A stretch of DNA of 64,000 nt from a plasmid. Within the stretch, counting starts at the first letter, position 1. Each line of letters opens with the position of its first letter. Where the stretch lies: the sequence record NZ_CP027239.1. One strand, given 5' to 3'. The notes beneath the pieces are model-generated. The model saw only the letters and a list, made by a program, of their open reading frames with translations, had not been told where the DNA came from and did not search any database. Position numbers and translations under genes: made by a program. Of this stretch, positions 3,516-63,374 are shown piece after piece.

Positions 3516-3524
3516 CTGCTGCAC
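3516..3524 (+). promoter_or_regulatory. STGCTGCAC promoter-like motif copy (representative; full list of ~30 copies given in findings)
   Basis: Exact 9-mer; A-initial second block 17 nt downstream; gene start 69 bp downstream. Confidence 0.6.
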
Positions 3525-3584
3525 CGCGCCGGCTGCAGCGGAGAGTGAGTGCAGCCCGTTCACCCACCCCTCAGGAGGCTCACC

Positions 3585-3959
3585 ATGACCGCACACCGTG
3601 GAGTGCTCGTCGAACCCGACGGCACCGTCAGCATTGAGACCTTCGACTCCGTAGATCTGGAGGCGCTCAGGACAACGGTCGGCGCACGCTACGTCGATGT
3701 CGTCCGGGTCGCGAGCATGGGCGGTGCCGATGATCTGACTCTGGACGCCTGGGTGGATGACGAGGGGCTGTTCACCGCCGAGTTCAACCCGGTCGCCAGT
3801 TTCATGGTCGCCAGCCTGCTGGGGGCGACCTGCCAGCGCTTTCACGGCAAGATGCTGTTCGTGGCCGGAAACACGACCACCGGTGACAGCGTGGGCCTGC
3901 CGGCGGTCACCGAGAAGGCACTTGTCGACTTGGGGGAGTACCTGGCCAAGTCGCTGTGA
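3585..3959 (+). CDS. hypothetical protein, paralog family 1 (with 24534..24962 and 30276..30749)
   Basis: RBS aggagg; motif copy 69 bp upstream; shared core (VLVEPDGTV / LIAVDGTT / LVIAVDGTT ... LHGPVVL). Confidence 0.6.
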   Translation: MTAHRGVLVEPDGTVSIETFDSVDLEALRTTVGARYVDVVRVASMGGADDLTLDAWVDDEGLFTAEFNPVASFMVASLLGATCQRFHGKMLFVAGNTTTGDSVGLPAVTEKALVDLGEYLAKSL

Positions 3960-4158
3960 TCGCGCGGGCAGGGCCCGCTCGAGTGCAGACGGGGCGGGCT
4001 CTGCCCGCTGCCTGGGCACGCGGGCGCACTGTCCGTGATTAGCCCCAGGCCGGCGTCCTGCCGCTGGTCTCGGGCGTGCTGCACCGACACGGGCAGGGGA
4101 GAGGGTGGAGCCCGACCGGCCCGCCGCCCTTGGGCCATCTGAGACGAGGAGGAAGACC

Positions 4159-4419
4159 ATGACTGACGCCGCCCGCACGATCACCTTCGCCAGCGGAAAC
4201 CTGCCGGGAAACCCGCACAGCAGCAGCGCCCACGAGTTCGCCGAGTCGGCTGAGGTGCTGGCCCTCGTCCACGAGCAGCGCACCGCGAACCTCATCGCCC
4301 TGCTCAACACTCCTGATGTGCCCACCAGTGACCGCTCGGCCCTGCTGGACGCTGTCTACAAGAACCTGGGCATCGAGGTCACGAAGCCCGGCGATGGGGG
4401 AGCGGCTCTCAACCTGTGA
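4159..4419 (+). CDS. hypothetical protein (86 aa)
   Basis: RBS gaggagg; GTGCTGCAC motif ~75 bp upstream; hairpin terminator follows. Confidence 0.5.
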   Translation: MTDAARTITFASGNLPGNPHSSSAHEFAESAEVLALVHEQRTANLIALLNTPDVPTSDRSALLDAVYKNLGIEVTKPGDGGAALNL

Positions 4420-4429
4420 CCTGACACGG

Positions 4430-4460
4430 CCCCGCCCGACCAACGGGCGGGGCCGTCCCG
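4430..4460 (+). terminator. GC-rich hairpin (cggccccgccc-N7-gggcggggccg)
   Basis: 11-bp perfect stem right after stop of 4159..4419. Confidence 0.4.
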
Positions 4461-4572
4461 CATCCGACGCCAGCGGTGGAGATGGTCGGACAGAAAGCCC
4501 CCGAAAGCACGTAAGTTCTGGCTGCGGCCTGCACCTCGGGCGCAGTGGACCTCGGCGAAGGAGACAACGGCA

Positions 4573-4974
4573 GTGCGCGACGACGAATCCCGCTCGCTGG
4601 GGCGCGCCATCCGCGCGGCCAGGCTGGAGGCTGGGCTGACCCAGCTCAAACTGGCGGTCGCGGTAGGGGTCAGCGCCGGGCAGATCGGTGTGTGGGAGCG
4701 CGGTCGGGTCTCGCCTGCACGCGGCCGTGCCGCCTACGTGCCGGAGGTGTCCCGCGAGCAACTCGAGGCGATCGCGGCGGCGCTGGGCTGCGAGGTCGCG
4801 GCCATCGCTGATCGGGCGGCGCTGTCCGCCGCCACCCGGCTCATGCTCGGGTTGGAGCCGCTCGGCCCGGCCAGCACCGTCATCGCCGGGATCGAGTACG
4901 ACCTCTCCGAAGCCGAGACCGACCGGGTCGCTGCTTTCGTCGCGGGCCTCATCGCCGCCCGCGAACTGCACTGA
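4573..4974 (+). CDS. XRE-family helix-turn-helix transcriptional regulator
   Basis: LGRAIRAARLEAGLTQLKLAVAVGVSAGQIGVWERG is a classic XRE HTH; GTG start with RBS aagga. Confidence 0.6.
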   Translation: MRDDESRSLGRAIRAARLEAGLTQLKLAVAVGVSAGQIGVWERGRVSPARGRAAYVPEVSREQLEAIAAALGCEVAAIADRAALSAATRLMLGLEPLGPASTVIAGIEYDLSEAETDRVAAFVAGLIAARELH

Positions 4975-5065
4975 TCGTCCACTGCTGCACCTGTCGCGGG
5001 CGCCGAGACAGTGGTTGCAGACAGCGACGCGAACAGCGCGGAGCGCCCGAGGCGAGGAGCCCATC

Positions 5066-5449
5066 ATGGACCTGCAGACCATTCAGTTCGACACCCTCGA
5101 CGCCGACGCCCTGGACCGCCTCAAGCGGGCGGAGGACAACCTGCGTTTCGACGGGGACCACGATCCGCTGCTGAACCTGCGCGGCCTGATCACCGACCTC
5201 AACTCGGTCGGGGTCTGGCCGGGGCGGGACGTGCTCGCCACCCCCGAGGGCGGACTGGTCTCCGACGGACTGGACCTCAAGGTCAACATCACCGGGTTCA
5301 CCTACGTGTCGTGCTTCATCGACTCGATGGACGAACTGGTGGGCGACGAGGGCTGGACGTGGCGAAGCATCGCCCAGGCCGTCACGGACCGCCTCAATGA
5401 GGAGATCCAGGCTGCTCGCGAAGCGCTGATCGCCCCGGCCTACACCTGA
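5066..5449 (+). CDS. hypothetical protein (127 aa)
   Basis: Motif copy 76 bp upstream; RBS gaggag; terminator downstream. Confidence 0.5.
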   Translation: MDLQTIQFDTLDADALDRLKRAEDNLRFDGDHDPLLNLRGLITDLNSVGVWPGRDVLATPEGGLVSDGLDLKVNITGFTYVSCFIDSMDELVGDEGWTWRSIAQAVTDRLNEEIQAAREALIAPAYT

Positions 5450-5466
5450 CGGGCAGACCATAGGCC

Positions 5467-5496
5467 CCGCACCCGAACCGGGTGCGGGGCACTTCT
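5467..5496 (+). terminator. intrinsic terminator (ccccgcaccc-loop-gggtgcgggg followed by cttctttg)
   Basis: 10-bp stem plus T-rich tail after stop at 5449. Confidence 0.5.
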
Positions 5497-5639
5497 TTGC
5501 GCCACGGTCCCGCTGTCCGAGCTGCTGGCTGCCGCAGCACCCTTCGCAGAGGACGGGGCCTGGCGATCTCGCCTGCTGCACTTCCCGAAGCGCATCCGAT
5601 GCTGATCGGGACATGCACCCCTGGCGGAAGGACACCCCG

Positions 5640-6083
5640 ATGCGCTCACTGGACCTGGTCTTACACGCGATCACCGACGACGAACGGGCACGGCTCGACG
5701 ACACGGCCTCACAGCTGCGCGAACCCGACGACTGGAACGCCGGCACCCGTGGACTGTGGCGCTTCTCGTATGAGGGGTTCGACAGTCTGCGCCATTTCGT
5801 GAACGCCTTGGCCGATTGCGGGGGCCTGCAGTGGGCGCAGAGGGGCGGGTTCGACCTGCTGGCGACGTTCGAGTCGGGCGACGGCTCGAACGACATGGAC
5901 GACGGCCTCAACATCTCCGTCGCCTTGCACCTGGGCGACATCCAACGCTCGTTCTCGCCCCTGATCACCGTGTTCGTGGACGACGTGGCCGCGTTCCTGG
6001 GGGAGGAGCCCACCGTGGAGTCCGCCGCGACCGCGATTCGCGACGCGCTCAACGAGACCCTCGCGCATTTCGCGGCCGAGTAG
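5640..6083 (+). CDS. hypothetical protein, tandem paralog of 6136..6582
   Basis: Motif 59 bp upstream; RBS ggaagg; shares DGLNISVALHLGD/TEFINISVLLPTKN and AATAIRDAL/CAEAVARAL with next gene. Confidence 0.55.
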   Translation: MRSLDLVLHAITDDERARLDDTASQLREPDDWNAGTRGLWRFSYEGFDSLRHFVNALADCGGLQWAQRGGFDLLATFESGDGSNDMDDGLNISVALHLGDIQRSFSPLITVFVDDVAAFLGEEPTVESAATAIRDALNETLAHFAAE

Positions 6084-6135: not shown

Positions 6136-6582
6136 ATGACTTCGCTGCTGATCAACTTCGACGACCTCGACCCCTCCGACCGTGCCGACCTGGAGGATCT
6201 GGCCACCTCGCTGGTCGAACCCGCCGACCACCGCTCTGAATGGGAGGGCCGCTGGTCCAAGTCGTTCCGCGCCTTGGACGCACTGCGCAGCCTGATCAAC
6301 GAGTTCGCCGCCCACGACGTGCTGCGGTGGGCCGACGGCACCCCGGCCGGGGCGACGGCCTCGTTCGACTCCGACGGTGAGCAGACCGACACCGAGTTCA
6401 TCAACATCTCCGTGCTGCTGCCGACCAAGAACACCACCGGCCGGTTCGGGGCGTTCGTGATGTTCCTGGTCTCCGACATCGACGACCTGCTGCCGGCGAG
6501 CGAGCGCACCGCGGCCACCTGCGCCGAGGCGGTGGCCCGGGCACTGGGCGACGCGGTCGCCGATGCGTGCACTGCTGCCTGA
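6136..6582 (+). CDS. hypothetical protein, tandem paralog of 5640..6083
   Basis: Same length (148 aa) and conserved blocks as upstream gene. Confidence 0.55.
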   Translation: MTSLLINFDDLDPSDRADLEDLATSLVEPADHRSEWEGRWSKSFRALDALRSLINEFAAHDVLRWADGTPAGATASFDSDGEQTDTEFINISVLLPTKNTTGRFGAFVMFLVSDIDDLLPASERTAATCAEAVARALGDAVADACTAA

Positions 6583-6589
6583 GTCGGCG

Positions 6590-6611
6590 GGCCCCTCCGG
6601 GGCCCGCACCG
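6590..6611 (+). terminator. hairpin gcgggcccc-tcc-ggggcccgc
   Basis: Perfect 9-bp stem immediately after stop 6582. Confidence 0.45.
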
Positions 6612-6692
6612 GGCGGGCGGCTGGCGCTGTCCGGCCAGGTCGAAGCACGGCCGGTCCCGCCGAAGGGAGGGGCAAGCGAGCGGTCGGCGGCA

Positions 6693-6701
6693 CTGCTGCA
6701 C
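6693..6701 (+). promoter_or_regulatory. STGCTGCAC promoter-like motif copy
   Basis: GCTGTCCGG 76 bp upstream, ACGCTG second block, ATG 60 bp downstream. Confidence 0.6.
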
Positions 6702-6760
6702 CCGCGGCAACGGCGGAGACGCTGACGGGGCAGTACCCACCCCGCTCGAGAGGAACCGCC

Positions 6761-7123
6761 ATGCACGATGACACCTCCACCCCTGATCCCCGCCCGCTCG
6801 CCGGTGCCGCCCTGGTCCTGCTCGGCGACGCCGTGCCACAGGAGACGGTCCGGCAGTGGTGGCAGGCCGCCCGCCACGTCTCCCGGCAGACGGTGGCCAG
6901 CGGCCAGCCCAGCCCCGCCCAGCAGGACGGGCAGGTGTGCATGACTGCGTTCCTGGGCGAGGTGCACCGACTGCTCGGGGAGGACGACGTGGCCCGCGAC
7001 GCGGCGATCAGCGCAGCGGCCTCGCAGGCCGACCTGATGGCCTTCCTTGCCACAAAGGAGCCGATCATGCGGGCCGCGATGCCCGACTACCTGCCGATCC
7101 TGCAGGGCTACCTGAACCCGTGA
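6761..7123 (+). CDS. hypothetical protein (120 aa)
   Basis: Motif 60 bp upstream; RBS gagagga. Confidence 0.5.
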   Translation: MHDDTSTPDPRPLAGAALVLLGDAVPQETVRQWWQAARHVSRQTVASGQPSPAQQDGQVCMTAFLGEVHRLLGEDDVARDAAISAAASQADLMAFLATKEPIMRAAMPDYLPILQGYLNP

Positions 7124-7310
7124 GCCTGGCACTGGGTGGGGCCACGGGCCTCGCCCAGCGCCTGCCGTCCCGGGCCCGCGCTGTCCGGGGGTCGGCAGGC
7201 CAGCCGCGACCTGCGGTGAGAGTCGCAGCCGTCGACGACTGCTGCACCTGGCGGACGAGAAGGGAGCGTCTTGGGCAGCGACGAACCCCGACAAGCCCAG
7301 GAGCAGACCG

Positions 7311-7820
7311 ATGGCACACACCACGTTCCCCGCGATCTTCCGCGACACAGCCCTGCTGACCCCCGCCCCCGCGCACGCTGACAGTGAGGTGATCGGCGTG
7401 GACCCGCAGACCGGCTACCACGTCCTGTGCGACGGGCACTTCGATCCGGACACCGTCCCCGCTGAGGTGCGGGCGGCTAAGGCCAGCGACTTCGCGGACT
7501 ACCTCAACCTGCTGGCCCGCCGACTGCGTGCCCGCATCCACGACACCCGGTCGGCCTCGTGGGAGGGCGACTGCGAGGTGCTGGCGGCCCGAAACCTGAT
7601 CGAGGAGTTCGCCGGCTACATCTACCGTCGCGACCTGCGCGAGGCCGAAGCCCTGCAGGCCGAGCTGATCACGCAGCGGGAGGACCGGCTGGCCGGCAGG
7701 CCCCTGCCGGAGTGGCGCAACAACGGGCCGGCCCGCCCGGCGATCCGTCGTGCCGCCGCCCTGGCGGGCATCTACCGGCGTCAGGCTGCCGCGCTGGCCC
7801 CGGCCACGGCCGCTGCCTGA
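7311..7820 (+). CDS. hypothetical protein (169 aa)
   Basis: Motif 64 bp upstream; RBS aggag. Confidence 0.5.
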   Translation: MAHTTFPAIFRDTALLTPAPAHADSEVIGVDPQTGYHVLCDGHFDPDTVPAEVRAAKASDFADYLNLLARRLRARIHDTRSASWEGDCEVLAARNLIEEFAGYIYRRDLREAEALQAELITQREDRLAGRPLPEWRNNGPARPAIRRAAALAGIYRRQAAALAPATAAA

Positions 7821-7856: not shown

Positions 7857-8216
7857 ATGAAACCGATCGACGCCACGAACTGCTTGACTCTCGACGACCT
7901 GCGCCCCATGGCGCTGGAGGAGTCCGCCGACGACCCCGACCATCTGAGCGCCGTCATCCGGTACACGCCGGGGGAGTGGGACGCCACGATGGGCAGGCTC
8001 ATCGAGGCCACCATGCGTGACTTTCTGGAGGACGCCCCGATGCGTGTCACGGTGGAGTACCTGACACCCGACGAAGGGGACTGGATGCGCCTGACCGGCG
8101 AACTCGTCGCACTCACCGCAGGCGGCGACGCCGTGTTCCTCGGAGGTGACCGCGGCCAGAAGCCGACCCAACGCAAGACCGTCCCGCTTGAGGACATCTA
8201 CACCCTCGCGTTCTGA
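7857..8216 (+). CDS. hypothetical protein (119 aa)
   Basis: RBS gaggagag; tightly follows previous gene. Confidence 0.5.
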   Translation: MKPIDATNCLTLDDLRPMALEESADDPDHLSAVIRYTPGEWDATMGRLIEATMRDFLEDAPMRVTVEYLTPDEGDWMRLTGELVALTAGGDAVFLGGDRGQKPTQRKTVPLEDIYTLAF

Positions 8217-8626
8217 GGGGGCGCTGCTATCCGCTGGGCCGGGGCGGTCCGCACCGGTGGGGCACTGCTGGTTGGTGGTGCGCTTGAACGTAGCCTCCTG
8301 GCCCCTCCTCGCGAAGTGGAGTCGTGCGCTTGCCCGGGCAGGAAGTCCTACGTTCGCGTGAAGAACTAGACAGGTCGTCCACACCGCCGCGGGCTAACCA
8401 AGCCGCGCTGTCCGCAGTTCAGCTGGGACACGCGCCCTCCGCCCAATCGCGAGGCGATCATTGCTCCCGCAGGCGGCGCTACCCGCACGTCGTTGATTCC
8501 GAACCTTTCCCCGGCCTGCGCACGGCTGCTGTGGTTGCCGCCGGACTCGGTGAGGGTGCTGCACCGTCAAAGCTCAGGGGCACAGTGGGCTGATCGGAAA
8601 CACAGCCCGCGTCGAGGAGGCCCCTG

Positions 8627-9073
8627 ATGAGCACTCAGCACACCATGGAGGAGCGCATGAACGCACTGTTCGGCGAACCGGTCGACCTGCCCACCGTTGA
8701 CGAGCTCGTCGCTTCCGGAGACCTCGTCGATGCGACTGGCTCCTACGCTGCCGGCAACGCCAGCGACCCCGACCGGCAGGCTCGGCTGCTGTTCAGCGCA
8801 GCCGCCTGGGACGACCTCGCCGCCTGGGACGAGAGGAACGCCGCCTACCAGGATGTTTCGGGTCGAATCCACGACGTGGTGACCGCTAGCAGGTTCTGGC
8901 ACCCGCTGACCGGACGGTGCAACTCCCGCATGCTCGGCGAACGCACCGTGTTCTCCCTGACTCGGATCCCGAACACGCCCAGGGCGACGATCCCGCGACA
9001 CACCAACGCCACCATCTACCCCGCCATCGACAACGGGCGGCTCACGCTCACCTTTCGACTGGCCTACGAGTAG
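8627..9073 (+). CDS. hypothetical protein, paralog family 2 (with 10261..10707)
   Basis: GDLVDATGSYAAG...RLLFSAAAWDDLAAWDERNAAYQDVSGRI vs GDLVDATAIYAVS...RLLFTRQAWYDVAAWDEHNTAHQSVAGRI; motif 63 bp upstream; RBS gaggagg. Confidence 0.6.
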   Translation: MSTQHTMEERMNALFGEPVDLPTVDELVASGDLVDATGSYAAGNASDPDRQARLLFSAAAWDDLAAWDERNAAYQDVSGRIHDVVTASRFWHPLTGRCNSRMLGERTVFSLTRIPNTPRATIPRHTNATIYPAIDNGRLTLTFRLAYE

Positions 9074-10033: not shown

Positions 10034-10260
10034 CTGAGCGCTGCGCGCACGGTACGGGCGGCTGTCCGCCGCTCGCTGCGCAACATCTGCAGGGTCGACG
10101 ACATCGCCGATGGGGCGTCCGCCATCTTCGAGCCGGCGCTTCGCGGCTGTCCGCGCCGACTGCCCCACCACCTGCCGGTCCTTCCCTCGGCGCTGCTGCA
10201 CTCTGCGCGGCGGGAGGCAGGGTGATCGAACCCGATACCCCGTGACCGAGGAGCGAAGAG

Positions 10261-10707
10261 ATGACCCCACTGCTGTACCGCGATCACCGCGTCAACGTGA
10301 GCGACCTGGCAGCCGATGCCGCAGGGCTCGGCGACTTGGTGAACGCCGGAGACCTGGTCGATGCCACTGCCATCTACGCCGTCAGCGTGGGCGCAAACCC
10401 GCACGAGCTGCCGCGGCTGCTGTTCACCCGCCAGGCTTGGTACGACGTCGCCGCGTGGGATGAACACAACACCGCCCACCAGAGCGTCGCCGGCCGCATC
10501 TGCAAGGTCCTGGCCGCCGCCGAAGCCCTCGACACAGCAACCGGACACCCGACCCCAGTGCGGGCGGGGCAGCGTCGTCGAGTGTGGGTTGCGCGGATCC
10601 CCAACGCGCGGATGGCGTCGATGGCCGCTGCCACCAACGTCGACCTGGTCGAACTCCCCGACGGTCACCGAACCGCACTGCTGTTCTGCGCCACCTACGA
10701 GCCCTGA
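10261..10707 (+). CDS. hypothetical protein, paralog family 2
   Basis: See 8627..9073; motif 60 bp upstream; RBS gaggag. Confidence 0.6.
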   Translation: MTPLLYRDHRVNVSDLAADAAGLGDLVNAGDLVDATAIYAVSVGANPHELPRLLFTRQAWYDVAAWDEHNTAHQSVAGRICKVLAAAEALDTATGHPTPVRAGQRRRVWVARIPNARMASMAAATNVDLVELPDGHRTALLFCATYEP

Positions 10708-10778: not shown

Positions 10779-11078
10779 ATGCCTCGGAAACTCACTACTG
10801 ACCAGCTGGAATGGCTCAGCGACAAGTGCGATGACCTCGACCTGAACCTGCGCACCGACTACGAAGGGCGCGGCCACTACGAATCCCCGGGCGTGGGCAT
10901 CGTCTGCCAGTCGCACGAGCTGGGCCTCGCGGCCCTGCTGATGGCGGCGACACTCAGCCAGGACAGCACCGGCATGGACTGGGATGACGTGCTCCACGAG
11001 CTCGACAATGCGCCCGCCCCGTCGATCGACTCGCTCGGGCTGTCTTCCATCGCCTACTGGCCCGGCCTCTCAGCCTGA
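10779..11078 (+). CDS. hypothetical protein (99 aa)
   Basis: RBS aggagg directly upstream. Confidence 0.5.
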   Translation: MPRKLTTDQLEWLSDKCDDLDLNLRTDYEGRGHYESPGVGIVCQSHELGLAALLMAATLSQDSTGMDWDDVLHELDNAPAPSIDSLGLSSIAYWPGLSA

Positions 11079-13080: not shown

Positions 13081-13087
13081 CCACTCC

Positions 13088-14234: not shown

Positions 14235-14248
14235 AACCCCACACCTGC

Positions 14249-55628: not shown

Positions 55629-55819
55629 CAAGGAGCCGTCCCGACCGGGTTGCGGCGCCGGGGAAGTCCGTCGGGTGGCTGTCCGGCCCACGCGGGCGGC
55701 AAGCCGCTGCCAGCGAAGAGTCCCGCCCGCCGCGCGGGCCCGGGGCGCTGCTGCACCGAGCAACCAGGCGGGCACGCTCGCACTCGTCCACCCCGCCTCC
55801 ACGAGCAAGGGAGCAACCG

Positions 55820-56224
55820 ATGAGCCGCACCGTTCGCCGCAGGTTCGCCTACACCGCGCGCGTTCGCACCAAAGTCGGGGGCGCTGGGCACGCGGCCTGG
55901 TCGGCGCGTGTGAGGTTCGAGCGCCGAGAGTGGGGCTCGAGCGTGCGGGAGGTGCAGCGCACCAAGTCGATCGTCGAGTCGTTCGACGAGCTGATCGACC
56001 CCAGCCACCCCGACATGCCCCCCGGCTTCGACCTGGAGACCCCCGAGATCCGCAGCTACATCGAACGGGCCCGCGCGGCCCGCGCCGTGGCCGATGCCGT
56101 CGCCGAGCAGCTGGCGCCCATCCAGGCGCAGTGGAAGGCGCAGACCGCCAGCACCAGCGATTATCCGCTCGACGGCTGGACCCCGGCAGCGTCCCCGCCG
56201 GCCACAACCGACCCCACCGCATGA
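55820..56224 (+). CDS. hypothetical protein (134 aa)
   Basis: Motif 64 bp upstream; RBS aagggagcaacc. Confidence 0.5.
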   Translation: MSRTVRRRFAYTARVRTKVGGAGHAAWSARVRFERREWGSSVREVQRTKSIVESFDELIDPSHPDMPPGFDLETPEIRSYIERARAARAVADAVAEQLAPIQAQWKAQTASTSDYPLDGWTPAASPPATTDPTA

Positions 56225-56333
56225 CCGGAGGTGCCCGGCGATCGTGCCGCCCACTGCGCAGGCCTCCGTGCTGCACCCCGGACCGCCGCGAGAACACTGA
56301 TCACCACACCGCCACCAGACCGAGGAGCACCCG

Positions 56334-56765
56334 ATGAGCGCCACCCGAACCATCACCGCCGCCGAACTCCGCCCGGGCGACACGTTCGTCAAGGACGATC
56401 AGCGGTTGACCGTCACCGACCAGGTCGCCCCGTCTGACACCTGGGCCGGTTTCACCCGCGTCGGCCTCGACTACGGAGTGCTCTACATCCTCTCCGACGC
56501 GCAGGTCACCGTCGTCGCCAGCACCGACGACGCGTGGGCGGACGTGACAGTCGGCCCCAACGGTTCAGTCGCCGACGAGACCAACGCCCACCACTTCACC
56601 ACCGCCGCCGGGACCCCGATCGCCACCAAGCTGCAGCTGGCCGTTCCCGCCGACCTGACCGCCGAGGACGAGATCGCCGAGTGGGTCGGCCACATCAGCC
56701 AGCGCATCATCACCGCCGGCGGGCCCGGCACCACCTTGACCGTGCACGTCGGAGACGGGCAGTGA
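56334..56765 (+). CDS. hypothetical protein (143 aa)
   Basis: Motif 58 bp upstream; RBS gaggagcacc. Confidence 0.5.
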   Translation: MSATRTITAAELRPGDTFVKDDQRLTVTDQVAPSDTWAGFTRVGLDYGVLYILSDAQVTVVASTDDAWADVTVGPNGSVADETNAHHFTTAAGTPIATKLQLAVPADLTAEDEIAEWVGHISQRIITAGGPGTTLTVHVGDGQ

Positions 56766-57151
56766 CCGCCGCAGACCGGCGCCGGGCGCCGTTCGCCGCG
56801 GTGCGGCCCTGCAAGCACTGCCCGTTTCGCAGCGACATCACCCCGTACCTGAGGCCGGAGCGAGCCCGCGAGATCGCCGATTCTCTCGACCGTGGTGAGG
56901 ACTTTCCCTGCCACCAGACGGTCACGTACGGCGAAGAAGACGGCCTCGAGACCGCTGATACGGGCAATGCCGCCCGCTGCGCCGGCGCCTTGATCATCTG
57001 CGAGAAGACCGACCGTCCCACGCAGGCCATGCGGATCGGTGAACGGCTGGGCCTGTACGACAGGAACGCCCTCGATATGGCCGCCCCGGTCTACGACACC
57101 CTCGCCGACTGGGTGACCGCCCACCAGGCCGCCCGCCACGGTCGGCACTGA
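56762..57151 (+). CDS. hypothetical Cys-containing protein (CKHCPF...C..C)
   Basis: GTGA overlap with previous gene; possible metal-binding cluster. Confidence 0.5.
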   Translation: MTAADRRRAPFAAVRPCKHCPFRSDITPYLRPERAREIADSLDRGEDFPCHQTVTYGEEDGLETADTGNAARCAGALIICEKTDRPTQAMRIGERLGLYDRNALDMAAPVYDTLADWVTAHQAARHGRH

Positions 57152-57361
57152 CTCGACCCGCGCTCGCGCCCCCACCAGCACGGGAAGATCCTGGCTGGGT
57201 GCACGGTGGCCTCGGCCCGACGGCGGCCTTGTCTTCCGGTCGGGCTGTCCGGCACGGCATTAGGCAGCCCCCGGGTCACAGCGCCGCACGCTGCTGCAGT
57301 CCCCAACAGGCGCGGGAAGGTGAGGGCATCAACCCACCCCGACCCGCTGAGGGAGCACACC

Positions 57362-57751
57362 ATGGCACTCGAGCCGCTGACCCCGACTGACCGAATCGTC
57401 AACGTCTACCTGAACGTCGCTCGCGACAGCCTGGGGCGACCCGCCGCACTGTTCGACGGGTACAAGGCCGGCGACCCCCTGCGCCACTGCTTCCGGCTCC
57501 CCCTCGTCGGCGCGGAGCTGCGCCTGTCGCCCACTGCGCTCGCGGAGAAGGTGTACCACCTGCTCAACGTCGGTGATGACCCCATGCTCGGTACGCCCGA
57601 CGAGCGGGCGGTGGCTTACCGACTCGCCAACTACCGATCCCTGAGCGTGGGCGACGTTCTCGAGATCGACGGCGAGCATCTGGCCGTGGCTTCCATGGGG
57701 TTCGTCTCCGTCGACGCCCCGGCGCGGGAGGCGATCTCGACGCCGTGGTGA
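57362..57751 (+). CDS. hypothetical protein (129 aa)
   Basis: CTGCTGCAG variant motif 63 bp upstream; RBS gagggagcac. Confidence 0.5.
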   Translation: MALEPLTPTDRIVNVYLNVARDSLGRPAALFDGYKAGDPLRHCFRLPLVGAELRLSPTALAEKVYHLLNVGDDPMLGTPDERAVAYRLANYRSLSVGDVLEIDGEHLAVASMGFVSVDAPAREAISTPW

Positions 57752-58101
57752 CCCAGGTGTGCGGGGCGATCATGGACTGGAAACCGGCCCTGACCCCAGT
57801 CCAGGCACGGCCCGGCAGATAGCAGGGCGCCCGCGAGCCAGGGACGGGCCACCCTGTGGCTGCGCTGTCCACGCTCCACCTCCGAGTCGCCGCCGCACGG
57901 TGGGGGAGGTTCGGGCCAGTTCGACGCGATCCCGTGGTTCGGCCCCGTCCGTTCCAAGGTCCGGCCCGGGTTGACGCCCGCGCGACACGCCGAGGAACCG
58001 CGCGGACCAGCGAAATTGGAAATGCGAAATACTAAATCCCCGGGTCGGGCTCTCCCGCTGCGTAGCGTCACTCTCGCACGCTGCCAGAGGAGGAGTGAGC
58101 G

Positions 58102-58410: not shown

Positions 58411-58740
58411 CTATTCGACGCCGGTCAGCGCACTGGCCCGACCACCAATCGGGCCGCTCCCAGCTGATCGAACCGAAGTCGAAGCACCGCGGCCACCGCG
58501 TTGTTCACCACACAACGTGCGACCCTGCAGGCGAGACGAAGGAAACGGCGACCACCTAGAACTTCCCACTGCAGGCCACCAACCTGCAGAAAAAGAAGAA
58601 CCCGCCCCTGACGGGGACGGGAACTTCAGAAACCAGAAGCGGAAGATTCTCTCGGTTACCAGCCGATCCCGGTTACCAGCCGGGTTCCTCCGAACGCCAT
58701 CCAGATCGCTCGTTGCCGACCAAAGCAATGAGGTCCTTTT
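58411..58740. promoter_or_regulatory. candidate replication origin / iteron region
   Basis: Locally reduced GC; direct repeat GGTTACCAGCCG x2; CTGCAGG x3; aaaaagaag A-tract; lies at the 5' end of or upstream of the prim-pol gene. Confidence 0.4.
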
Positions 58741-60700
58741 GTCGTACGACGACGACTATACAGCGCTGCCCCCTACCCATCTACCGGACGACACGCCGAG
58801 CAATGCTGGGCTGACCTGGGAAATACTCCGCGATAGCTGGAGCCCTCGGACCCACATCCGGGTCGACCGCGACGGTGACAACGCCGTCTACGTCGACGTG
58901 CCCGCCGGCCGAACCCGCCCGGCGAAGCCGCACGCGCTGTACCTCGCCGACGAACAGCAGCGATTCCGCCTGCTCGGCTTCGACTTCGACGCCCACCGGG
59001 ACGGACTGTTTCCGCAGGTAGATGCCGCAGCCTTGCAGGCAGTCCTCACCGCCGCCCACATCCCGCACCTGGCGTGCGTCTCCGGGCCCGGCGGCGGCGT
59101 CCACGTGTGGGTGCGCCTGTCCGCCCCCACGCCTGCCTCCGCGGTCCGTCGCCTCGCCCGCCAGCTGGACGCCGTCTACCCGTCGTTCGACCCCACCCCG
59201 CTGCTCAACGCCGCCACCGGCTGTCTTCGAGCTCCTGGGTCTCCGCACCGCCGAGGCGGCCACTCCGCCCCACAGGGCAATCCCCGGATCCTGCCCGTGG
59301 CTTTCCCCGATGTCGTGCGAGCCCTGGCTGGTCTGCGCCCCGCTGCGGGCACCTCGGCCGGCAGCCCGCGGGCCGAGCGGCGCCAGCCGATCGACACCAC
59401 CGCCTGGGGCACCCCGCATCTTCGCGGGATCCGGCGGCCGTTGCCGGCGCAGTTCCGCGCTCTCGCCCGCAAACCCGTCGCCCTGGCCGCCGATGCCTCT
59501 GCCATCGGCTGGTCCCTGCTGTTGGCCTGCGCGCACGCCCGTTTCACCCAGGAGGACGTCCACCACGCCGCCTTCGTCGAGCAGTGGCCTGGCCTGGAGT
59601 ACCTGCGCACCGTCCGTCAGGCCGACCATCGCTCTCCCCGGCCCAGGAAGGAGCAGTTTCTCGAGCAGCAGTGGCATCGCGCCGTCGACAGCGCAGCTGC
59701 GATCCCTGCACCACCAGAGGATGCCGGCAGCGCCAAGTGGCAGGCCTCCGCTGAGCGTGTCGCCGCGTTCCAGCAGGAGTGCGACCGCACGCCCAACCGG
59801 TGGCACGGGTGCACCGGCGTCGTCGACAGGCTCCTGCTCGACGCCCTGTGCTGGCACATCGCTCGAGCGGCGACCACAACGGTGCACCTGTCCGAGAGGG
59901 CGTGGGCGCTGACCGCAGGCCTCGACAGATCCACCGTCAACCGTCGCATCAAGACCTTGCTCGCCGAGGGCTGGATCGTGCGCGTCAAGGACGCCGCCGG
60001 ACCGTGGGCGGCGCAGTGGGCGTTAAGAGAAGGGGGCGGGAAATCAGGTAGTGGCCCAAATTCGGTAGAGGTGATCGACTCTCTCGCCGAGAAACTGCGA
60101 TCCGCTCGTCACGACGTCTGGTGCGCCCCCGGCTGGGGCCAGACCGCGTGGGCGGTGTGGCGGGCCATCAGCGATGGCGTCCGCGGGCTCCGCCAGATCC
60201 GCGCCGCGACAGGACTGGGCGTGAGCACCATCGCCAGCAAACTCGCGGCCCTGCGCGGTGCCGGCCTCATCGACCGAACAGGGCGACGCGCCTATAGCGG
60301 CCGCAGTCGTCTGGCCACGGCCGCCGAGCACCTCGGAATCCGTGGCGCCCACGCGGACAAGGAACGCCTATACGCACTGCATAGCGCCACATTCGTGTGG
60401 TGGCTCACCGACCGTCTCCGCGACCAGCTGTCCGGCCCCAGCGACGCCCTGGCCGAGTGGGGCATGTTCCCCGACGACCACGTTGCCGCCAGTACCGACC
60501 CCCGGGACGTTGCGATGGTCTACGGGGCAGTCTCCGCGGGCACACCGCCGCAGGTCACCGCCTGGTCAGCCGCGATGGTTTTGCAGGAACTCCACCGCCA
60601 CCGAGACCCCCGCTACTGGCGCGAGCTCGTCGCCGACGCCCGCACCGCGCTGCCCGCGGCGGAGATGTACGGGCCGGCGGTCCTACATCTGGCTGCCTAG
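58517..60700 (+). CDS. replication protein with bifunctional primase-polymerase (AEP/prim-pol) N-terminal domain
   Basis: AEP motifs LGFDFDAH (DxD), VSGPGGGVHVWVRL (sGxGxH), LRAPGSPHRRGG (R-PGS-H); C-terminal wHTH-like region; true start probably downstream of 58517 (5' part overlaps iteron-like DNA). Confidence 0.7.
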   Translation: MRPCRRDEGNGDHLELPTAGHQPAEKEEPAPDGDGNFRNQKRKILSVTSRSRLPAGFLRTPSRSLVADQSNEVLLSYDDDYTALPPTHLPDDTPSNAGLTWEILRDSWSPRTHIRVDRDGDNAVYVDVPAGRTRPAKPHALYLADEQQRFRLLGFDFDAHRDGLFPQVDAAALQAVLTAAHIPHLACVSGPGGGVHVWVRLSAPTPASAVRRLARQLDAVYPSFDPTPLLNAATGCLRAPGSPHRRGGHSAPQGNPRILPVAFPDVVRALAGLRPAAGTSAGSPRAERRQPIDTTAWGTPHLRGIRRPLPAQFRALARKPVALAADASAIGWSLLLACAHARFTQEDVHHAAFVEQWPGLEYLRTVRQADHRSPRPRKEQFLEQQWHRAVDSAAAIPAPPEDAGSAKWQASAERVAAFQQECDRTPNRWHGCTGVVDRLLLDALCWHIARAATTTVHLSERAWALTAGLDRSTVNRRIKTLLAEGWIVRVKDAAGPWAAQWALREGGGKSGSGPNSVEVIDSLAEKLRSARHDVWCAPGWGQTAWAVWRAISDGVRGLRQIRAATGLGVSTIASKLAALRGAGLIDRTGRRAYSGRSRLATAAEHLGIRGAHADKERLYALHSATFVWWLTDRLRDQLSGPSDALAEWGMFPDDHVAASTDPRDVAMVYGAVSAGTPPQVTAWSAAMVLQELHRHRDPRYWRELVADARTALPAAEMYGPAVLHLAA

Positions 60701-60770: not shown

Positions 60771-61610
60771 ATGTCTGAACCAGCGAAGGCTCCCAGTTCC
60801 GCACGCGTCGTAAGCAGGCCTCGCGGTAGACGCCGTGAGAACCCCGAGGGAGCGGCCATCTCGATCGACGATGCCGCCAAGCGGAACTTGAAGCTGCATC
60901 TCGTCGCCGCCTCGGGTGAGACGATCACGGCTTCGGGAAGCTCAGACCTGCTGACGGTGTCGGCCCGCACCTTCAAGCGAAAGGCCCCCACCACAGCACC
61001 CAAGGCCGGGCCACGCGACCAAGTGGCGCAGGCCGTTCTGGACCTCCTGGCCGACGTCGGGATCCCTGCCGAGGAGGGGCCCCGCCTGATTGATCACGTC
61101 CGAGACCTGCTCCGCTCGACCACTTCGTCGCAGTCCACCCCCGTCAGCCAGGCCGACGTGAACTACCTACGTCAGCACGCAGGTCTGGACGACCCGTCGG
61201 TCATCGACGACTGGAACCCCCAGTCCGAAGACCAGCTACGGGCAGAAGTCGCCGTGGCTAACGCCACGACGTTCATGATGGGCACCCTCAGCCGAGAGGA
61301 AGCCGCACAGCTGCTCAACAGGGACGAATCCGTGGTGTCGAGGCGAGTCAGCAACGGGCAACTCCTCGCGGTCTACAGAGATGGGCGCCCGCGCTTCCCG
61401 CGGTGGCAATTCCACAACGGGCAGGCCCTGCCCGGACTGCCCGCGGTGATCGACGCGCTGTCGACGCTGGGCATGGACACCGTGGCCGTAAGTAGCTTCA
61501 TGGTCCGCCCCAACGACGAGCTAGACGGACTACCGCCCGTCGACTACCTCGTCGGCGGAGGCGACCCAGAGGCTGTAGTGGCTCTTCTCGAGAGCATGGC
61601 GCGCAGTTGA
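60771..61610 (+). CDS. Xre/ParS/MbcA-type antitoxin (HTH + C-terminal RES-toxin-binding domain)
   Basis: RBS aaggagg; HTH LSREEAAQLLNRDESVVSRRVSNGQLLAV; C-terminal block FMVRPNDELDGLPPVDYLVGGGDPEAVVALLES (DUF2384-like). Confidence 0.7.
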   Translation: MSEPAKAPSSARVVSRPRGRRRENPEGAAISIDDAAKRNLKLHLVAASGETITASGSSDLLTVSARTFKRKAPTTAPKAGPRDQVAQAVLDLLADVGIPAEEGPRLIDHVRDLLRSTTSSQSTPVSQADVNYLRQHAGLDDPSVIDDWNPQSEDQLRAEVAVANATTFMMGTLSREEAAQLLNRDESVVSRRVSNGQLLAVYRDGRPRFPRWQFHNGQALPGLPAVIDALSTLGMDTVAVSSFMVRPNDELDGLPPVDYLVGGGDPEAVVALLESMARS

Positions 61611-62251
61611 GCGGTCGGCCCAAGGCTCCGAGGACCCCACGAAGGCCCTTGGAGTGGGATGACACTGACATCGTCACGGTCAATCCCGGTACTGCGCTGT
61701 GGCGGATTCACAGGACTCGCGGTCCGTTCCCGAGCGCCTGGAGCGACTACCGCTTCTACGGGCCACTGCCGGGGATGCGGTGGGACCCCCACCCTGCGCC
61801 GACCGCAGCCCACACCGACTGCGCCGTCCTCTACACCGCCTACGACCTGCCCACCTGCATCGCGGAGGTCTCTCATCCCGCCGGCCTAGTCGACACCGTG
61901 ACGGCTAGCCCGTTCGCGACGTCCTGGTCCCCGACCAGGCCCCTGCGCCTACTCGATCTCACACGGCAGTGGCCGCTTCGGATGGACGCCACGCACGCCC
62001 TGATGTTCGCTCCCCGATCGACGTGCAGGAACTGGGCGCACGAGATCTGGAAGACCGCGCGCAGCGAGGGCAAGCAACTGGACGGACTCGAGGTGCAGTC
62101 GACGGTGACGGGCTCCAACATGGCCGTGCTGTTCTCTGACAGTCAAAACGCCCTTCCCGCCGCCCCGGCATTCACCTCCCCCCTCTCCGGGCCGATGGTC
62201 TTCACCATCGCGGCGAACCTCGCCGCCAGAGTGCAGTGGCCCATCATCTGA
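61607..62251 (+). CDS. RES-domain toxin (ParT/MbcT-like NAD+-consuming toxin)
   Basis: Start overlaps antitoxin stop; RES-family blocks LWRIHRTRGPF, GMRWDP (Arg), AVLYTAYDLPTCIAEVSHP (Glu), downstream conserved Ser. Confidence 0.7.
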   Translation: MSGRPKAPRTPRRPLEWDDTDIVTVNPGTALWRIHRTRGPFPSAWSDYRFYGPLPGMRWDPHPAPTAAHTDCAVLYTAYDLPTCIAEVSHPAGLVDTVTASPFATSWSPTRPLRLLDLTRQWPLRMDATHALMFAPRSTCRNWAHEIWKTARSEGKQLDGLEVQSTVTGSNMAVLFSDSQNALPAAPAFTSPLSGPMVFTIAANLAARVQWPII

Positions 62252-62291
62252 GTCGCCGTCGTCGTCCTCGCGGGCCGGATGACCTCTCAGG

Positions 62292-62564
62292 ATGAGCCGC
62301 CGACGCTACAGACGAGACACCCCCGTCGCGCCGCCCCTTTTTCCGTGGGCCCGACTAACGTCGCGGGCCATGAGCGCCGTGGAAGACCGCCCCAACTACT
62401 GCCCGAACGGACATCCCTTCGGGCCGGACAAAGTCCTGGTCGGGTGGCGCCCTCCGCCGGTGGGCCAGGTCGGACGCGGTTCCCGCACCTACGAGTGCCT
62501 GCAGTGCGGGGCCATCATGGACTGGAAACCCACCCTGACGCCCGCCAGCGGCCCCCACAGGTAG
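62292..62564 (+). CDS. hypothetical zinc-ribbon protein (C..H...C..C)
   Basis: YCPNGH...ECLQCG pattern; start uncertain (62292 or ~62370). Confidence 0.35.
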   Translation: MSRRRYRRDTPVAPPLFPWARLTSRAMSAVEDRPNYCPNGHPFGPDKVLVGWRPPPVGQVGRGSRTYECLQCGAIMDWKPTLTPASGPHR

Positions 62565-62750
62565 CGGTCGGGGGCGACTGCGACGCTGTCCGCACCACAT
62601 CCCGCCGAGCTCTCACCCGCCACCGGCCCGCATGCTGCTGCACCTTCCGGCCCTGCGCCGATAGTTGAGCCGTCCCACCGCCTCGGCCGGGAGCGGCTCC
62701 ACGAAGCCGCCCTGAGGACGAGCGGAACGCCCGACCGAAGGGAGCCCTCG

Positions 62751-63221
62751 ATGCTTCTGCGCGACATGCTCGACAAGTACGCCAACCTGCAGCGCCAACG
62801 CCAGCAGGAATCTGACGCCATCGAATCCGGCGAGCACGGCAGTTACGAGCTGTACGACGAGCTCGAAGACAACATCGCCGAGCTGTTCATCGACAACGCG
62901 CCCGCGCTGACTGCGCTGCTCGCCCGGCTCGACGCGCTGACCGCCGCGGTCACCGCCTACGACACGGCCACCGAGGCTGGAGACAACGACGACAGCCACG
63001 ACGAGGCGATCCGGGTGGCCGCCCGCGAGGTGATGGAGCAGGCGCGCGGCGCGGGCGGTGAGCACAGCGGGCCTGACTACGCCGATCTGCGCCAGGCGCA
63101 CACGGCAGCGTTGCGGGCCGTCGACGGCGACAGCAACGACGACGAGATCGCCGCCTGGCGTGAGACCGCGGAACTGGCGACGGCGTACCTGCCCGGCTAC
63201 CAGGACCCGACCATCGACTGA
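62751..63221 (+). CDS. hypothetical acidic protein (156 aa)
   Basis: Motif ~108 bp upstream; RBS gaagggagcc; hairpin follows stop. Confidence 0.5.
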   Translation: MLLRDMLDKYANLQRQRQQESDAIESGEHGSYELYDELEDNIAELFIDNAPALTALLARLDALTAAVTAYDTATEAGDNDDSHDEAIRVAAREVMEQARGAGGEHSGPDYADLRQAHTAALRAVDGDSNDDEIAAWRETAELATAYLPGYQDPTID

Positions 63222-63232
63222 CCACCACCACC

Positions 63233-63262
63233 TGACCCCGGTCCGAGCAACGGGCGGGGTCA
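63233..63262 (+). terminator. hairpin tgaccccgg-N12-ccggggtca (approx.)
   Basis: 8-9-bp stem after stop 63221. Confidence 0.35.
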
Positions 63263-63365
63263 GCTGGTCTCCGCTGAACGGCAGCGCCGCTGTCCGGCCC
63301 GGATCGCGCGCCTTCATCCGGCCGACGCCCGGCACCCACCCACGACGAACGGGTTCGACGGCGCG

Positions 63366-63374
63366 GTGCTGCAC
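63366..63374 (+). promoter_or_regulatory. STGCTGCAC promoter-like motif copy
   Basis: gtgctgcactcgcggaccgc shares a 17-nt extension with the copy at 14428. Confidence 0.6.

Follow-up and report, generated by a model that had tools for sequence, protein, structure and literature searches.

The 64,000-nucleotide stretch analyzed here (the window; sequence record NZ_CP027239.1) is part of a large plasmid-like element of Dietzia (Mycobacteriales), and along its + strand runs an array of a bipartite motif, a 9-mer of consensus STGCTGCAC followed at a fixed distance by a second block, the copies of which are very probably transcription initiation signals of a sigma-70-family holoenzyme. We read them in this way because of the fixed spacing of the two blocks, the A(-11)/T(-7) footprint, the start signal, the geometry of the leaders, the position of the copies after hairpins, and their association with first genes. 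A further proposal, which we hold to be about evenly balanced, is that the array would consist of some 32 insulated promoter-gene-terminator units under one dedicated specificity factor; such a factor is proposed because the -10 lacks the T(-12) preferred by SigA and because the 9-mer is unlike any actinobacterial -35.

An array of co-oriented intergenic 9-mers

Exact matches to STGCTGCAC number 28 in the window and all 28 lie on the + strand, against 2.37 ± 1.44 (maximum 7) expected from dinucleotide-preserving shuffles; with two copies of the variant CTGCTGCAG (at 23230 and 57291) there are 30 intergenic 9-mers, about 12-fold above expectation. An extra match, GTGCTGCAG at 27915, looks like chance because it is intragenic and has no second block. 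The original prediction, made from the sequence alone, had described about 30 co-oriented intergenic copies, and this description holds (30 found, all + and all intergenic, 2.4 expected), with coordinates that agree at 29 sites, the remaining copy starting at 22080 rather than 22081. The placement shortly upstream of start codons is likewise borne out, most copies beginning 66-93 nt before the start codon and five 104-144 nt before it, and the 17-nt extension said to be common to 14428 and 63366 is present in both. Equal frequency on both strands or inside coding regions, which would have pointed to a simple oligomer bias, was not seen in the window.

When degenerate copies were sought, with up to two mismatches in the 9-mer and the partner block obligatory, three + strand sites were added (2730, 34777, and 36204), and the same search of the - strand returned five two-mismatch matches only, none of them closer and none near the consensus. 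A position matrix of the 30 sites shows no sequence information in the flanks of either block, so that recent duplication of a single segment does not account for the copies.

The second block resembles a sigma-70-type -10 element

The second block was originally given as ASRGTG, but the position matrix gives G-N2-A-N3-T instead. Counting from 0 at the first base of the 9-mer, A is found at +26 in 29/30 window sites and T at +30 in 28/30, the latter being a conserved partner that had not been singled out before; G occupies +23 in 22 of the 30 sites, a purine is favored at +24, and C at +36 and A or G at +37 are enriched. The A exactly 17 nt past the 9-mer is thus as described (29/30), but the C or G said to follow it is present in only 23 of 30 sites, and the continuation xGTG is found in 12. 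Non-redundant sites selected on the full TGCTGCA-N18-A-N3-T in the window and its relatives were pooled (58 in all), so that the A and the T are fixed by construction, and in this set G stands at +23 (-14) in 46/58, a purine at +24 (-13) in 52/58, G at +29 in 39/58, C at +36 (-1) in 36/58, and A or G at +37 (+1) in 42/58. T at +25 (-12) occurs in one of the 58 (P = 0.0007 against base composition). The central T of the 9-mer is present in 58/58, and TGCTGCA at -36 to -30 is invariant in every copy. The 9-mer ends at +8 and the -10 hexamer begins at +25, and this spacing is kept by 29 of the 30 window sites and by the pooled 58 without exception. On the coding strand the spacer from +9 to +25 has very few T (0-7 per column in the 58 sites), and it becomes G-rich toward the -10.

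Judged by its sequence, the second block is G(-14)-R-G-A(-11)-N3-T(-7), the signature of a sigma-70-family -10 element. Setting the T at -7 places the C/purine step at -1/+1, G at -14, and the 9-mer at -37 to -29, which is the -35 position. The predicted transcription start is this C/purine step, 6-7 nt 3' of T(-7), and from it to the ATG the distance is 29-56 nt for most copies, with GGAGG before the ATG; five leaders are longer. The earlier reading of the two blocks as a -35/-10 pair is therefore well matched by the fixed spacing, a footprint of two islands, the C/purine signal, and the geometry of leader, ribosome-binding site, and ATG. The footprint was obtained from 19 pairs of orthologous promoters, with 68-93% identity in the coding DNA downstream of them; A(+26) is conserved in 100%, T(+30) in 95%, and +23 to +25 in 74-89%, against 32-58% in the spacer and 26-68% in the upstream sequence. 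The identity of the 9-mer within the pairs is in part a product of how the comparison was set up.

With respect to sigma-70 promoters in general, the spacer has the fixed length that fits a -35/-10 pair (16-18 bp between hexamers), and both A at -11 and T at -7 are present; a scan of the window for consensus sigma-70 promoters returned 0 promoters. ECF (extracytoplasmic function) sigma promoters follow a general pattern of a -35 with AAC and a -10 with CGT, and an ECF (group 4) promoter was rejected, neither element being in the consensus CTGCTGCAC ... GRGA-N3-T. A G at -14 is also found in the corynebacterial extended -10. Among mapped promoters of M. smegmatis, 79% have ANNNT, C is favored at -1 and A or G at +1, and there is no SigA -35 consensus, with 63% of the ANNNT promoters being TANNNT and the VANNNT class being weaker (PMC6448022). 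The original argument that the missing TAnnnT excludes a housekeeping-like promoter was too strong, and it fails because ANNNT is found in 79% of the M. smegmatis promoters; A-N3-T with G(-14) is the core -10 of Mycobacteriales SigA promoters. The array promoters resemble these in having ANNNT between -13 and -6 at the right distance from a C/purine start. They differ in being nearly without the T preferred at -12 (1/58 compared with about 63% TANNNT), and for this reason they are not plain SigA promoters, and they differ also in carrying an invariant 9-bp block at -37 to -29 (TGCTGCA at -36 to -30), where SigA promoters have no consensus. The scarcity of T(-12), together with the weakness of VANNNT promoters (PMC6448022), suggests that the array promoters would depend on their -35 block.

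Frpo-type promoters act on single-stranded DNA, in which a long imperfect hairpin rebuilds the -35/-10, and they lie beside oriT on the side transferred first; a promoter of this type was rejected as well. Folding of -40 to +60 with DNA parameters at 30 sites gave a mean z of -0.39, with none below -2, and since there is no excess of single-strand folding these are not Frpo-type promoters. The array does resemble the Frpo leading-region anti-defense islands (PMC11541004) in being a long co-oriented run of small genes with anti-defense-type domains on a plasmid; unlike them it extends over more than 60 kb and shows no such folding.

Among the leaders, that at 13885-13960 (gene 13956-14234) is unusual in being AT-rich, at 104 nt, and in having a small conserved hairpin, CCTTTAC-AGAT-GTAGAGG, with counterparts in the relatives' loci L001 (3770-3845) and L004 (3561-3636); the hairpin shows no covariation and no Rfam match. 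Its promoter (13852) is one of the two without T at +30. CCCACCC in leaders is not enriched overall (30 versus 22 expected), nor is CGGACCGC, which is common to three spacers.

Array units and terminator-like hairpins

A codon-usage-based gene call assigned 71 of the window's 83 genes to the + strand and 12 to the - strand. The motif lies in the upstream gap of 32 + strand genes, for which the median gap is 196 nt; among the other 39 + strand genes the median is 59 nt, which is what operon-internal genes would show. None of the 12 - strand genes has the motif, and the chance that 32 promoters among 83 genes would miss all 12 is about 0.007. The array amounts to 32 units with about 48 genes and a median product of 130 aa, which agrees with the regulon of about 30 units of small uncharacterized proteins that had been envisaged. 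Genes without the motif include a serine recombinase, Lsr2, an Opp-like ABC transporter, and an AEP primase. The promoter units are as follows.

2730-2767, + strand: probable promoter unit; degenerate 9-mer ATGCTGCAC, -10 A-N3-T, predicted start; AAGGAG and ATG about 84 nt downstream
3516-3553, + strand: promoter unit; CTGCTGCAC-N17-AGAGT; first gene 3585-3959 (DUF3846)
4076-4113, + strand: promoter unit; GTGCTGCAC-N17-AGGGT; gene 4159-4419
4982-5019, + strand: promoter unit; CTGCTGCAC-N17-ACAGT; gene 5066-5449
5573-5610, + strand: promoter unit; -10 ATGCT; genes 5640-6083, 6136-6582
6693-6730, + strand: promoter unit; -10 ACGCT; gene 6761-7123
7239-7276, + strand: promoter unit; -10 AGCGT; genes 7311-7820, 7857-8216; homology block with relatives begins exactly at 7239
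8556-8593, + strand: promoter unit; GTGCTGCAC, -10 ACAGT; gene 8627-9073
10193-10230, + strand: promoter unit; -10 AGGGT; genes 10261-10707, 10779-11078
11591-11628, + strand: promoter unit; -10 AGGCT; gene 11657-12415
13852-13889, + strand: promoter unit; no T at +30 (ACGGC); long AT-rich leader; gene 13956-14234
14428-14465, + strand: promoter unit; -10 ACAGT; 107-nt leader; genes 14572-14781, 14842-15810
17084-17121, + strand: promoter unit; -10 ACAGT; genes 17171-17437, 17473-17772
18321-18358, + strand: promoter unit; -10 ATCGT; gene 18402-18821 (DUF8317); homology block begins exactly at 18321
19415-19452, + strand: promoter unit; -10 AAGGT; ATG about 19480, then 424-aa gene 19852-21126
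21419-21456, + strand: promoter unit; -10 AGGCT; gene 21487-21903
22080-22117, + strand: promoter unit; -10 ACGAT; genes 22147-22284, 22344-23072 (DUF2786/DUF7168)
23230-23267, + strand: promoter unit; CTGCTGCAG, -10 ACGAT; genes 23297-23557, 23554-23922
27181-27218, + strand: promoter unit; no A at +26 (TGACT; variant kept in L001); genes 27274-27480, 27480-28583 (ADP-ribosylglycohydrolase)
31373-31410, + strand: promoter unit; -10 ATCAT; gene 31445-32011
32546-32583, + strand: promoter unit; no T at +30 (ACAAC); genes 32612-32899, 32926-33792
33940-33977, + strand: promoter unit; -10 AAGGT; gene 34031-34606
34777-34814, + strand: possible promoter unit; GTGCTGTAC, -10 AAGGT; no clear open reading frame downstream
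36204-36241, + strand: probable promoter unit; CTACTGCAG, -10 AGGGT, then tgggCA; gene 36271-36633
39169-39206, + strand: promoter unit; GTGCTGCAC, -10 AGGGT; genes 39247-39825, 39888-40145
43097-43134, + strand: promoter unit; -10 ACAGT; gene 43173-43490
46648-46685, + strand: promoter unit; -10 ACCGT; genes 46740-47018, 47053-47451, 47448-48059
54433-54470, + strand: promoter unit; GTGCTGCAC, -10 ACACT; genes 54504-55121, 55118-55387, 55425-55628
55748-55785, + strand: promoter unit; -10 ACGCT; gene 55820-56224
56268-56305, + strand: promoter unit; GTGCTGCAC, -10 ACACT; genes 56334-56765, 56762-57151
57291-57328, + strand: promoter unit; CTGCTGCAG, -10 AAGGT; gene 57362-57751
62635-62672, + strand: promoter unit; -10 ATAGT; 79-nt leader; gene 62751-63221
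63366-63403, + strand: promoter unit; GTGCTGCAC, -10 ACCAT; gene 63482 to beyond 64000

Many of the upstream stop codons are followed, 5-18 nt on, by the start of a strong GC-rich hairpin, and by their sequence these hairpins look like terminators without T-tails; a scan of the window for T-tailed terminators gave chance-level results. Three examples are listed.

3962-4011, + strand: terminator-like hairpin, dG -42, between gene 3585-3959 and promoter 4076
5464-5490, + strand: terminator-like perfect GC hairpin, 15 nt past the stop codon, one of about 15 such hairpins
43011-43050, + strand: terminator-like hairpin, dG -36, preceding promoter 43097

The order within a unit is therefore gene, GC-rich hairpin, about 20 nt, a second motif of 8 nt (GCTGTCCG), 40-95 nt, 9-mer, 16-nt spacer, -10, start, a leader of 29-56 nt, GGAGG, and ATG. 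Two paralogous 148-aa proteins (8627-9073 and 10261-10707) each stand behind a 9-mer promoter of their own, and members of this family recur in the Dietzia sp. 179-F and Gordonia relatives.

A second co-oriented motif between the units

The 8-mer GCTGTCCR has 33 copies in the window, all on the + strand, against 9.6 expected for both strands together. Twelve of the 33 are coding, and these reflect codon usage because nine of them read G-CTG-TCC-G in frame; the other 21 fall within 15 kb of non-coding DNA. At units with a strong hairpin the 8-mer GCTGTCCG follows it by 12-34 nt (17-22 nt in 7/10 cases), and the 8-mer stands 46-104 nt upstream of the 9-mer; no partner block goes with it. It also follows five genes that have no canonical 9-mer promoter directly after them, the copy at 34687 preceding the degenerate 9-mer at 34777. 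The non-coding copies are listed below.

5512-5519, + strand: GCTGTCCG, 21 nt past hairpin 5464-5490, 61 nt before 9-mer
6626-6633, + strand: GCTGTCCG, 18 nt past hairpin 6587-6607, 67 nt before 9-mer
7180-7187, + strand: GCTGTCCG, 17 nt past hairpin 7128-7162, 59 nt before 9-mer
8407-8414, + strand: GCTGTCCG, 149 nt before 9-mer
10061-10068, + strand: GCTGTCCG, intergenic
10146-10153, + strand: GCTGTCCG, 47 nt before 9-mer
13143-13150, + strand: GCTGTCCG, 22 nt past hairpin 13086-13120, no 9-mer after; mosaic block ends here
13804-13811, + strand: GCTGTCCG, 48 nt before 9-mer; mosaic block with L004 begins here
14292-14299, + strand: GCTGTCCG, 21 nt past hairpin 14247-14270
19357-19364, + strand: GCTGTCCG, 58 nt before 9-mer
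21315-21322, + strand: GCTGTCCG, 104 nt before 9-mer
24006-24013, + strand: GCTGTCCG, 19 nt past hairpin 23934-23986, no 9-mer after
32074-32081, + strand: GCTGTCCG, 12 nt past hairpin 32018-32061, no 9-mer directly after
33869-33876, + strand: GCTGTCCG, 26 nt past hairpin 33810-33842, 71 nt before 9-mer
34687-34694, + strand: GCTGTCCG, 34 nt past hairpin 34616-34652, 90 nt before degenerate 9-mer 34777
54362-54369, + strand: variant GCTGTCCA, 71 nt before 9-mer
55678-55685, + strand: GCTGTCCG, 70 nt before 9-mer
57244-57251, + strand: GCTGTCCG, 47 nt before 9-mer
57864-57871, + strand: variant GCTGTCCA, after gene 57362-57751, no 9-mer after
62585-62592, + strand: GCTGTCCG, 50 nt before 9-mer
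63289-63296, + strand: GCTGTCCG, 20 nt past hairpin 63227-63268, 77 nt before 9-mer

The distances from 8-mer to 9-mer cluster at 46-51, 55-62, 66-72, and 77-82 nt, with a best period of 11.3 bp (R = 0.44, p about 0.011 corrected for the periods scanned), which is suggestive of helical phasing with the promoter. The phasing suggests an upstream regulator site, and the position after hairpins and after genes without a following promoter suggests an insulator or a stoperator-like site. The 8-mer is also found in the relatives' loci L001-L006, L011-L015, and L026. Before a gene for an XRE-family helix-turn-helix (HTH) protein, the -35 of a TAAGTT promoter is overlain by the core of the 8-mer in inverted form; this was set aside, being not kept in the orthologues of Dietzia sp. 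179-F or Gordonia.

The stoperators of cluster A mycobacteriophages are 13-bp sites bound by a two-domain monomeric repressor (PMC9283540), and the array is like them in having more than 20 short asymmetric intergenic sites that lie along the direction of transcription in an actinobacterial mobile element (30 9-mers and 21 8-mers, all +). It is nevertheless very unlikely that the 9-mers are stoperator-like roadblocks that halt elongating polymerase between genes and have no role in initiation, even though about 30 co-oriented asymmetric intergenic sites are the stoperator pattern (PMC9283540). Stoperators, most of which stand between genes and at a distance from promoters, have no partner and are not tied to a -10, whereas 29/30 copies of the 9-mer have the A-N3-T partner at one distance, together with a start signal and a regular leader; the sites moreover come after the terminator-like hairpins and open the units at their 5' end, the 9-mer marks the start of homology blocks, and there is no phage content. 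The likeness to stoperators that had been raised for the 9-mer thus fails, its copies being locked to a -10 element, and the description suits the 8-mer GCTGTCCG better, as the only one of the two motifs that behaves as a free-standing intergenic site. Nothing like the two-domain monomeric immunity repressor (HTH plus stoperator domain) of a temperate phage was found, the 20 products scanned with PHROGs showing no phage functions and the only HTH candidate matching generic XRE folds.

Distribution in related elements

All of the Dietzia and Gordonia relatives that were examined carry the bipartite motif, with a density of 6-12 per 20 kb and no copy on the - strand. In Dietzia sp. 179-F the array begins right after a RecG-like helicase, and the ParA-containing backbone upstream of it is without the motif; ParA and a RecG-like helicase are likewise encoded just upstream of the window. 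No bipartite motif was found in 50 kb of the Rhodococcus pyridinivorans plasmid pB, which has the same ParA...RecG backbone (RecG 67% identical) and genes in mixed orientation, nor in 145 kb of unrelated Dietzia plasmids, in which the 9-mers are in-frame CTG-CTG-CAG codons. A scan of viral contigs for pairs of 8-mer and 9-mer gave single chance-level matches per contig only. These controls bear on the idea that the array is a compositional or codon-usage artifact of a GC-rich genome, which has in its favor the intragenic CTG-CTG-CAG/C codons of the unrelated plasmids and the coding copies of GCTGTCCR, and which we regard as practically negligible, given 30/30 intergenic 9-mers on one strand at 12-fold over expectation, a fixed partner block kept across diverged relatives, and the absence of the full bipartite motif from 195 kb of control DNA.

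Distant relatives have signals of their own. The sequence CCGCACATCTACC stands 4-5 nt before the ATG in L016 (Cellulosimicrobium) and L018 (Pseudactinotalea), in 11-15 copies on the + strand only, with one or two copies in L019 (Cellulomonas), and from its sequence and position looks like a leaderless promoter; it precedes a set of paralogous genes, the products of which start with M..(S/T)RVPAGV.TGGQF, a common N-terminal motif. R. hoagii (L007, WVAB01000001.1) has GC hairpins built as ACCCCTCCCCGG...CCGGGGAGGGGT, about 15 in all and spread over both strands, and 40-60 nt past each of them stands TAyGGT-N4-5-GCATCACA, another private promoter-like signal. Since the motif is absent from the controls and other signals are found in distant relatives, it is specific to one lineage of a wider plasmid family, and, to judge from such lineage-specific replacement, the use of private promoter codes may be general in the family. 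Two further repeats considered as promoter signals were rejected, TCAACCAG (L018) being a protein repeat and GCGGGGCT (L015) a CRISPR array.

Boundaries of homology blocks between the window and its relatives often fall exactly on the 9-mer (starts at 7239, 18321, and 22077) and on the 8-mer (13804, 13150, and 14299), and the gene content is mosaic among relatives. This would be expected if the 9-mer, the hairpin with GCTGTCCG, or both were recombination or cassette-boundary sites with only secondary promoter features, but we consider this highly improbable. Boundaries at conserved islands are also expected from selection or from BLAST extension into motifs, the window has one small serine recombinase and one insertion sequence only, with no integron-type integrase, and the -10 partner and the start-codon geometry would be left unexplained. 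Integron cassette arrays come with an IntI tyrosine integrase and with promoterless cassettes that end in attC; the array is also unlike them in that each unit has its own promoter (attC cores were not searched for).

What reads the 9-mer

If the copies are initiation signals, the invariant 9-mer (C/G)TGCTGCAC at -37 to -29 would take the -35 position, and host RNA polymerase would fire at the array promoters only when a dedicated factor reads it. The putative factor could be an alternative sigma factor, through its region 4, or, equally plausibly, an activator or sigma-remodeling protein at the -35, and it would switch about 48 mostly uncharacterized small genes on or off together, with the 8-mer GCTGTCCG likely acting as a phased upstream regulator site or as a transcriptional insulator. 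A specificity factor is favored in that the -10 is systematically without T(-12) and TGn, has its own conserved G-R-G at -14 to -12, and keeps an invariant spacing, and the invariant central T of the near-palindromic TGC-T-GCA core suggests asymmetric reading.

Several points weigh against this. Neither a sigma-70 domain nor any other obvious specificity factor was found in the window, its flanks (about 20 kb), or syntenic relatives, the search for sigma-70 domains covering the products scanned directly and the precomputed Pfam tables of syntenic loci; the original statement that the window has no sigma-factor gene can be extended to the flanks. The start sites are predicted from sequence signal only, A-N3-T with G(-14) is also read by unaided SigA, such that the promoter may be factor-independent, and the near-palindromic core of the 9-mer could suit the operator of a repressor. 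An activator encoded by the element would be an awkward requirement if the cargo genes serve establishment and must be expressed on arrival in a new host. Finally, the sole DNA binder that co-occurs with the motif belongs to the XRE type, which is mostly a repressor family. In a comparison limited to both motif-positive relatives and the motif-negative loci sampled, three window products only are present in the former and absent from the latter, namely the XRE-family HTH protein, the 148-aa family (8627-9073 and 10261-10707), and a 69-aa protein (14572-14781), and the XRE protein is the only recognizable DNA binder to co-occur with the motif in the sampled Dietzia and Gordonia relatives. Against the PDB it matches generic XRE folds at E 0.003 or weaker.

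4573-4974, + strand: XRE-family HTH protein, 133 aa, candidate regulator

A possible but somewhat doubtful alternative is accordingly that SigA reads the promoters unaided and that a global repressor encoded by the element, such as the XRE protein, binds the 9-mer as its operator, such that the genes would be expressed in a burst on entry (zygotic induction) and shut off as the repressor builds up. The ANNNT core with C(-1) and purine(+1) fits SigA (PMC6448022), and the cargo is of an establishment or anti-defense-like kind (DUF3846, ADP-ribosyltransferase/glycohydrolase, and DUF2786, with an orphan Dam-like methylase and ArdC-N in relatives) and nearly all co-oriented, as in leading regions (PMC11541004). 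The repressor-type XRE protein, besides being the only motif-tracking DNA binder, sits within the motif-driven stretch, and the near-palindromic core would suit it. On the other hand, with T(-12) depleted and no TGn the -10 by itself looks weak, 9 bp is short for an HTH dimer, the invariance of the central T (58/58) points to asymmetric reading, and zero variance in the spacing to the -10 is more typical of direct contact with the holoenzyme. A more specific form of the dedicated-factor reading, which is speculative and rather unlikely as a whole, is that the factor is a sigma-like protein or a redirector of SigA outside current domain libraries that reads CTGCTGCAC at the -35 and, with GCTGTCCG about 20 nt past each terminator hairpin and in phase with the promoter at about 11 bp, defines a standardized, insulated promoter-gene-terminator cassette format that is swapped between Dietzia and Gordonia plasmids, distant relatives using private signals such as CCGCACATCTACC.

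Relation to known systems

In T4 middle promoters a MotA box at -30 is combined with a sigma-70 -10, and sigma is appropriated by MotA and AsiA, and in the PafBC-dependent RecA-NDp promoters of mycobacteria a host-type -10 is kept and the -35 is replaced. The array promoters are like both in pairing a host-type -10 with a non-host upstream block at a fixed distance before dozens of genes of one program, and unlike both in that their sequence is unrelated and that the element is a plasmid, not a phage; no homologue of MotA, AsiA, or PafBC was identified. The global repressors of conjugative plasmids, KorA/KorB of RK2 and ArdK/StbA of R388, act at longer palindromic operators at variable positions in ordinary promoters. 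They too coordinate many promoters of one plasmid, including establishment and maintenance genes, whereas in the array a 9-mer stands in place of the -35, always at exactly the same position, in about 32 promoters. The early promoters of the Streptomyces phage phiC31 are many and near-identical with a non-canonical -35/-10, and no factor is known to have been identified for them. Compared by description only, they share with the array an actinobacterial mobile element, a multi-copy non-canonical bipartite promoter, and the lack of a recognizable sigma gene, and they differ in being of a phage rather than a plasmid. The array belongs to none of the T4 middle, PafBC, or conjugative-plasmid regulon families, its sequence being unrelated and a homologous factor lacking, nor is it a member of the SigA, ECF, stoperator, Frpo, or integron systems, whose defining features were tested and not found. 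No published description of the motif was found in the literature searched, and full-text matches to the 9-mer string were primers in unrelated papers.

The array would thus be a sharply defined regulon, with about 32 promoters and about 48 mostly uncharacterized genes, in an order of bacteria (Mycobacteriales) that is normally without a recognizable -35. Identification of the factor that reads the 9-mer would show how such plasmids coordinate genes of apparent establishment or anti-defense function, and it may bring to light a new mechanism by which actinobacterial RNA polymerase is redirected. As compact, insulated parts, the promoter, the hairpin, and the 8-mer might find use in gene expression in Dietzia, Gordonia, and Rhodococcus.

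Other features of the element

The window is assigned to Dietzia by homologues of the 424-aa protein (19852-21126), which come from D. maris (87%, the closest named), other Dietzia sp., Gordonia, Rhodococcus hoagii, and Nocardia. The AEP primase, which has a winged helix-turn-helix domain (58739-60700), has homologues on Dietzia and Rhodococcus plasmids, and it is all that small Dietzia plasmids in PLSDB have in common with the element (45-47% identity). Megablast searches of phage and plasmid collections with 20 kb returned nothing, a PHROGs scan of 20 products showed no phage functions, and neither Rfam families in the window nor an oriT or relaxase in the window or the fetched flanks were seen. 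A tRNA-Met called by ARAGORN at 4806-4881 lies inside the XRE regulator gene and is probably a false positive. Other domains in the window are DUF3846, DUF2786/DUF7168, and DUF8317.

Adjoining the AEP primase are an Xre/MbcA-type antitoxin and a RES-domain toxin (60771-61610 and 61649-62251), probably a plasmid maintenance module. A 702-aa ADP-ribosyltransferase (25050-27158), a 68-aa open reading frame, and an ADP-ribosylglycohydrolase (27480-28583) are kept in the D. maris and Gordonia relatives, and the two enzymes look like a toxin/antidote-type or anti-defense pair. A gene for an Lsr2-family xenogeneic silencer is followed by an IS4/IS5-type transposase split in two open reading frames (41083-42336). 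In GCA_025147785.1 a 100% identical segment begins exactly at 37576, beside the serine recombinase (38312-39106), and its left flank there consists of chromosomal genes (polyprenyl synthase, MptA, and a PknB-like kinase), such that 37576 may be an integration or rearrangement junction, or the edge of an independently moving sub-module. In Dietzia sp. 179-F (L015 14200-15100, on a 233-kb contig) a CRISPR array and a type I-E cas operon lie directly downstream of the motif array, and in Nocardia altamirensis (L008/L017 6660-7180) about 10 direct iterons AAACYGTTTCTTCGC upstream of a RepA_C gene look like a plasmid replication origin. The largest - strand gene of the window encodes a complete MmeI-family type IIL restriction-modification enzyme (51486-54308). 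Recognition sites of this family typically end in a CAG(C)-like pattern, and the reverse complements of both the 9-mer and the 8-mer end in CAG(C).

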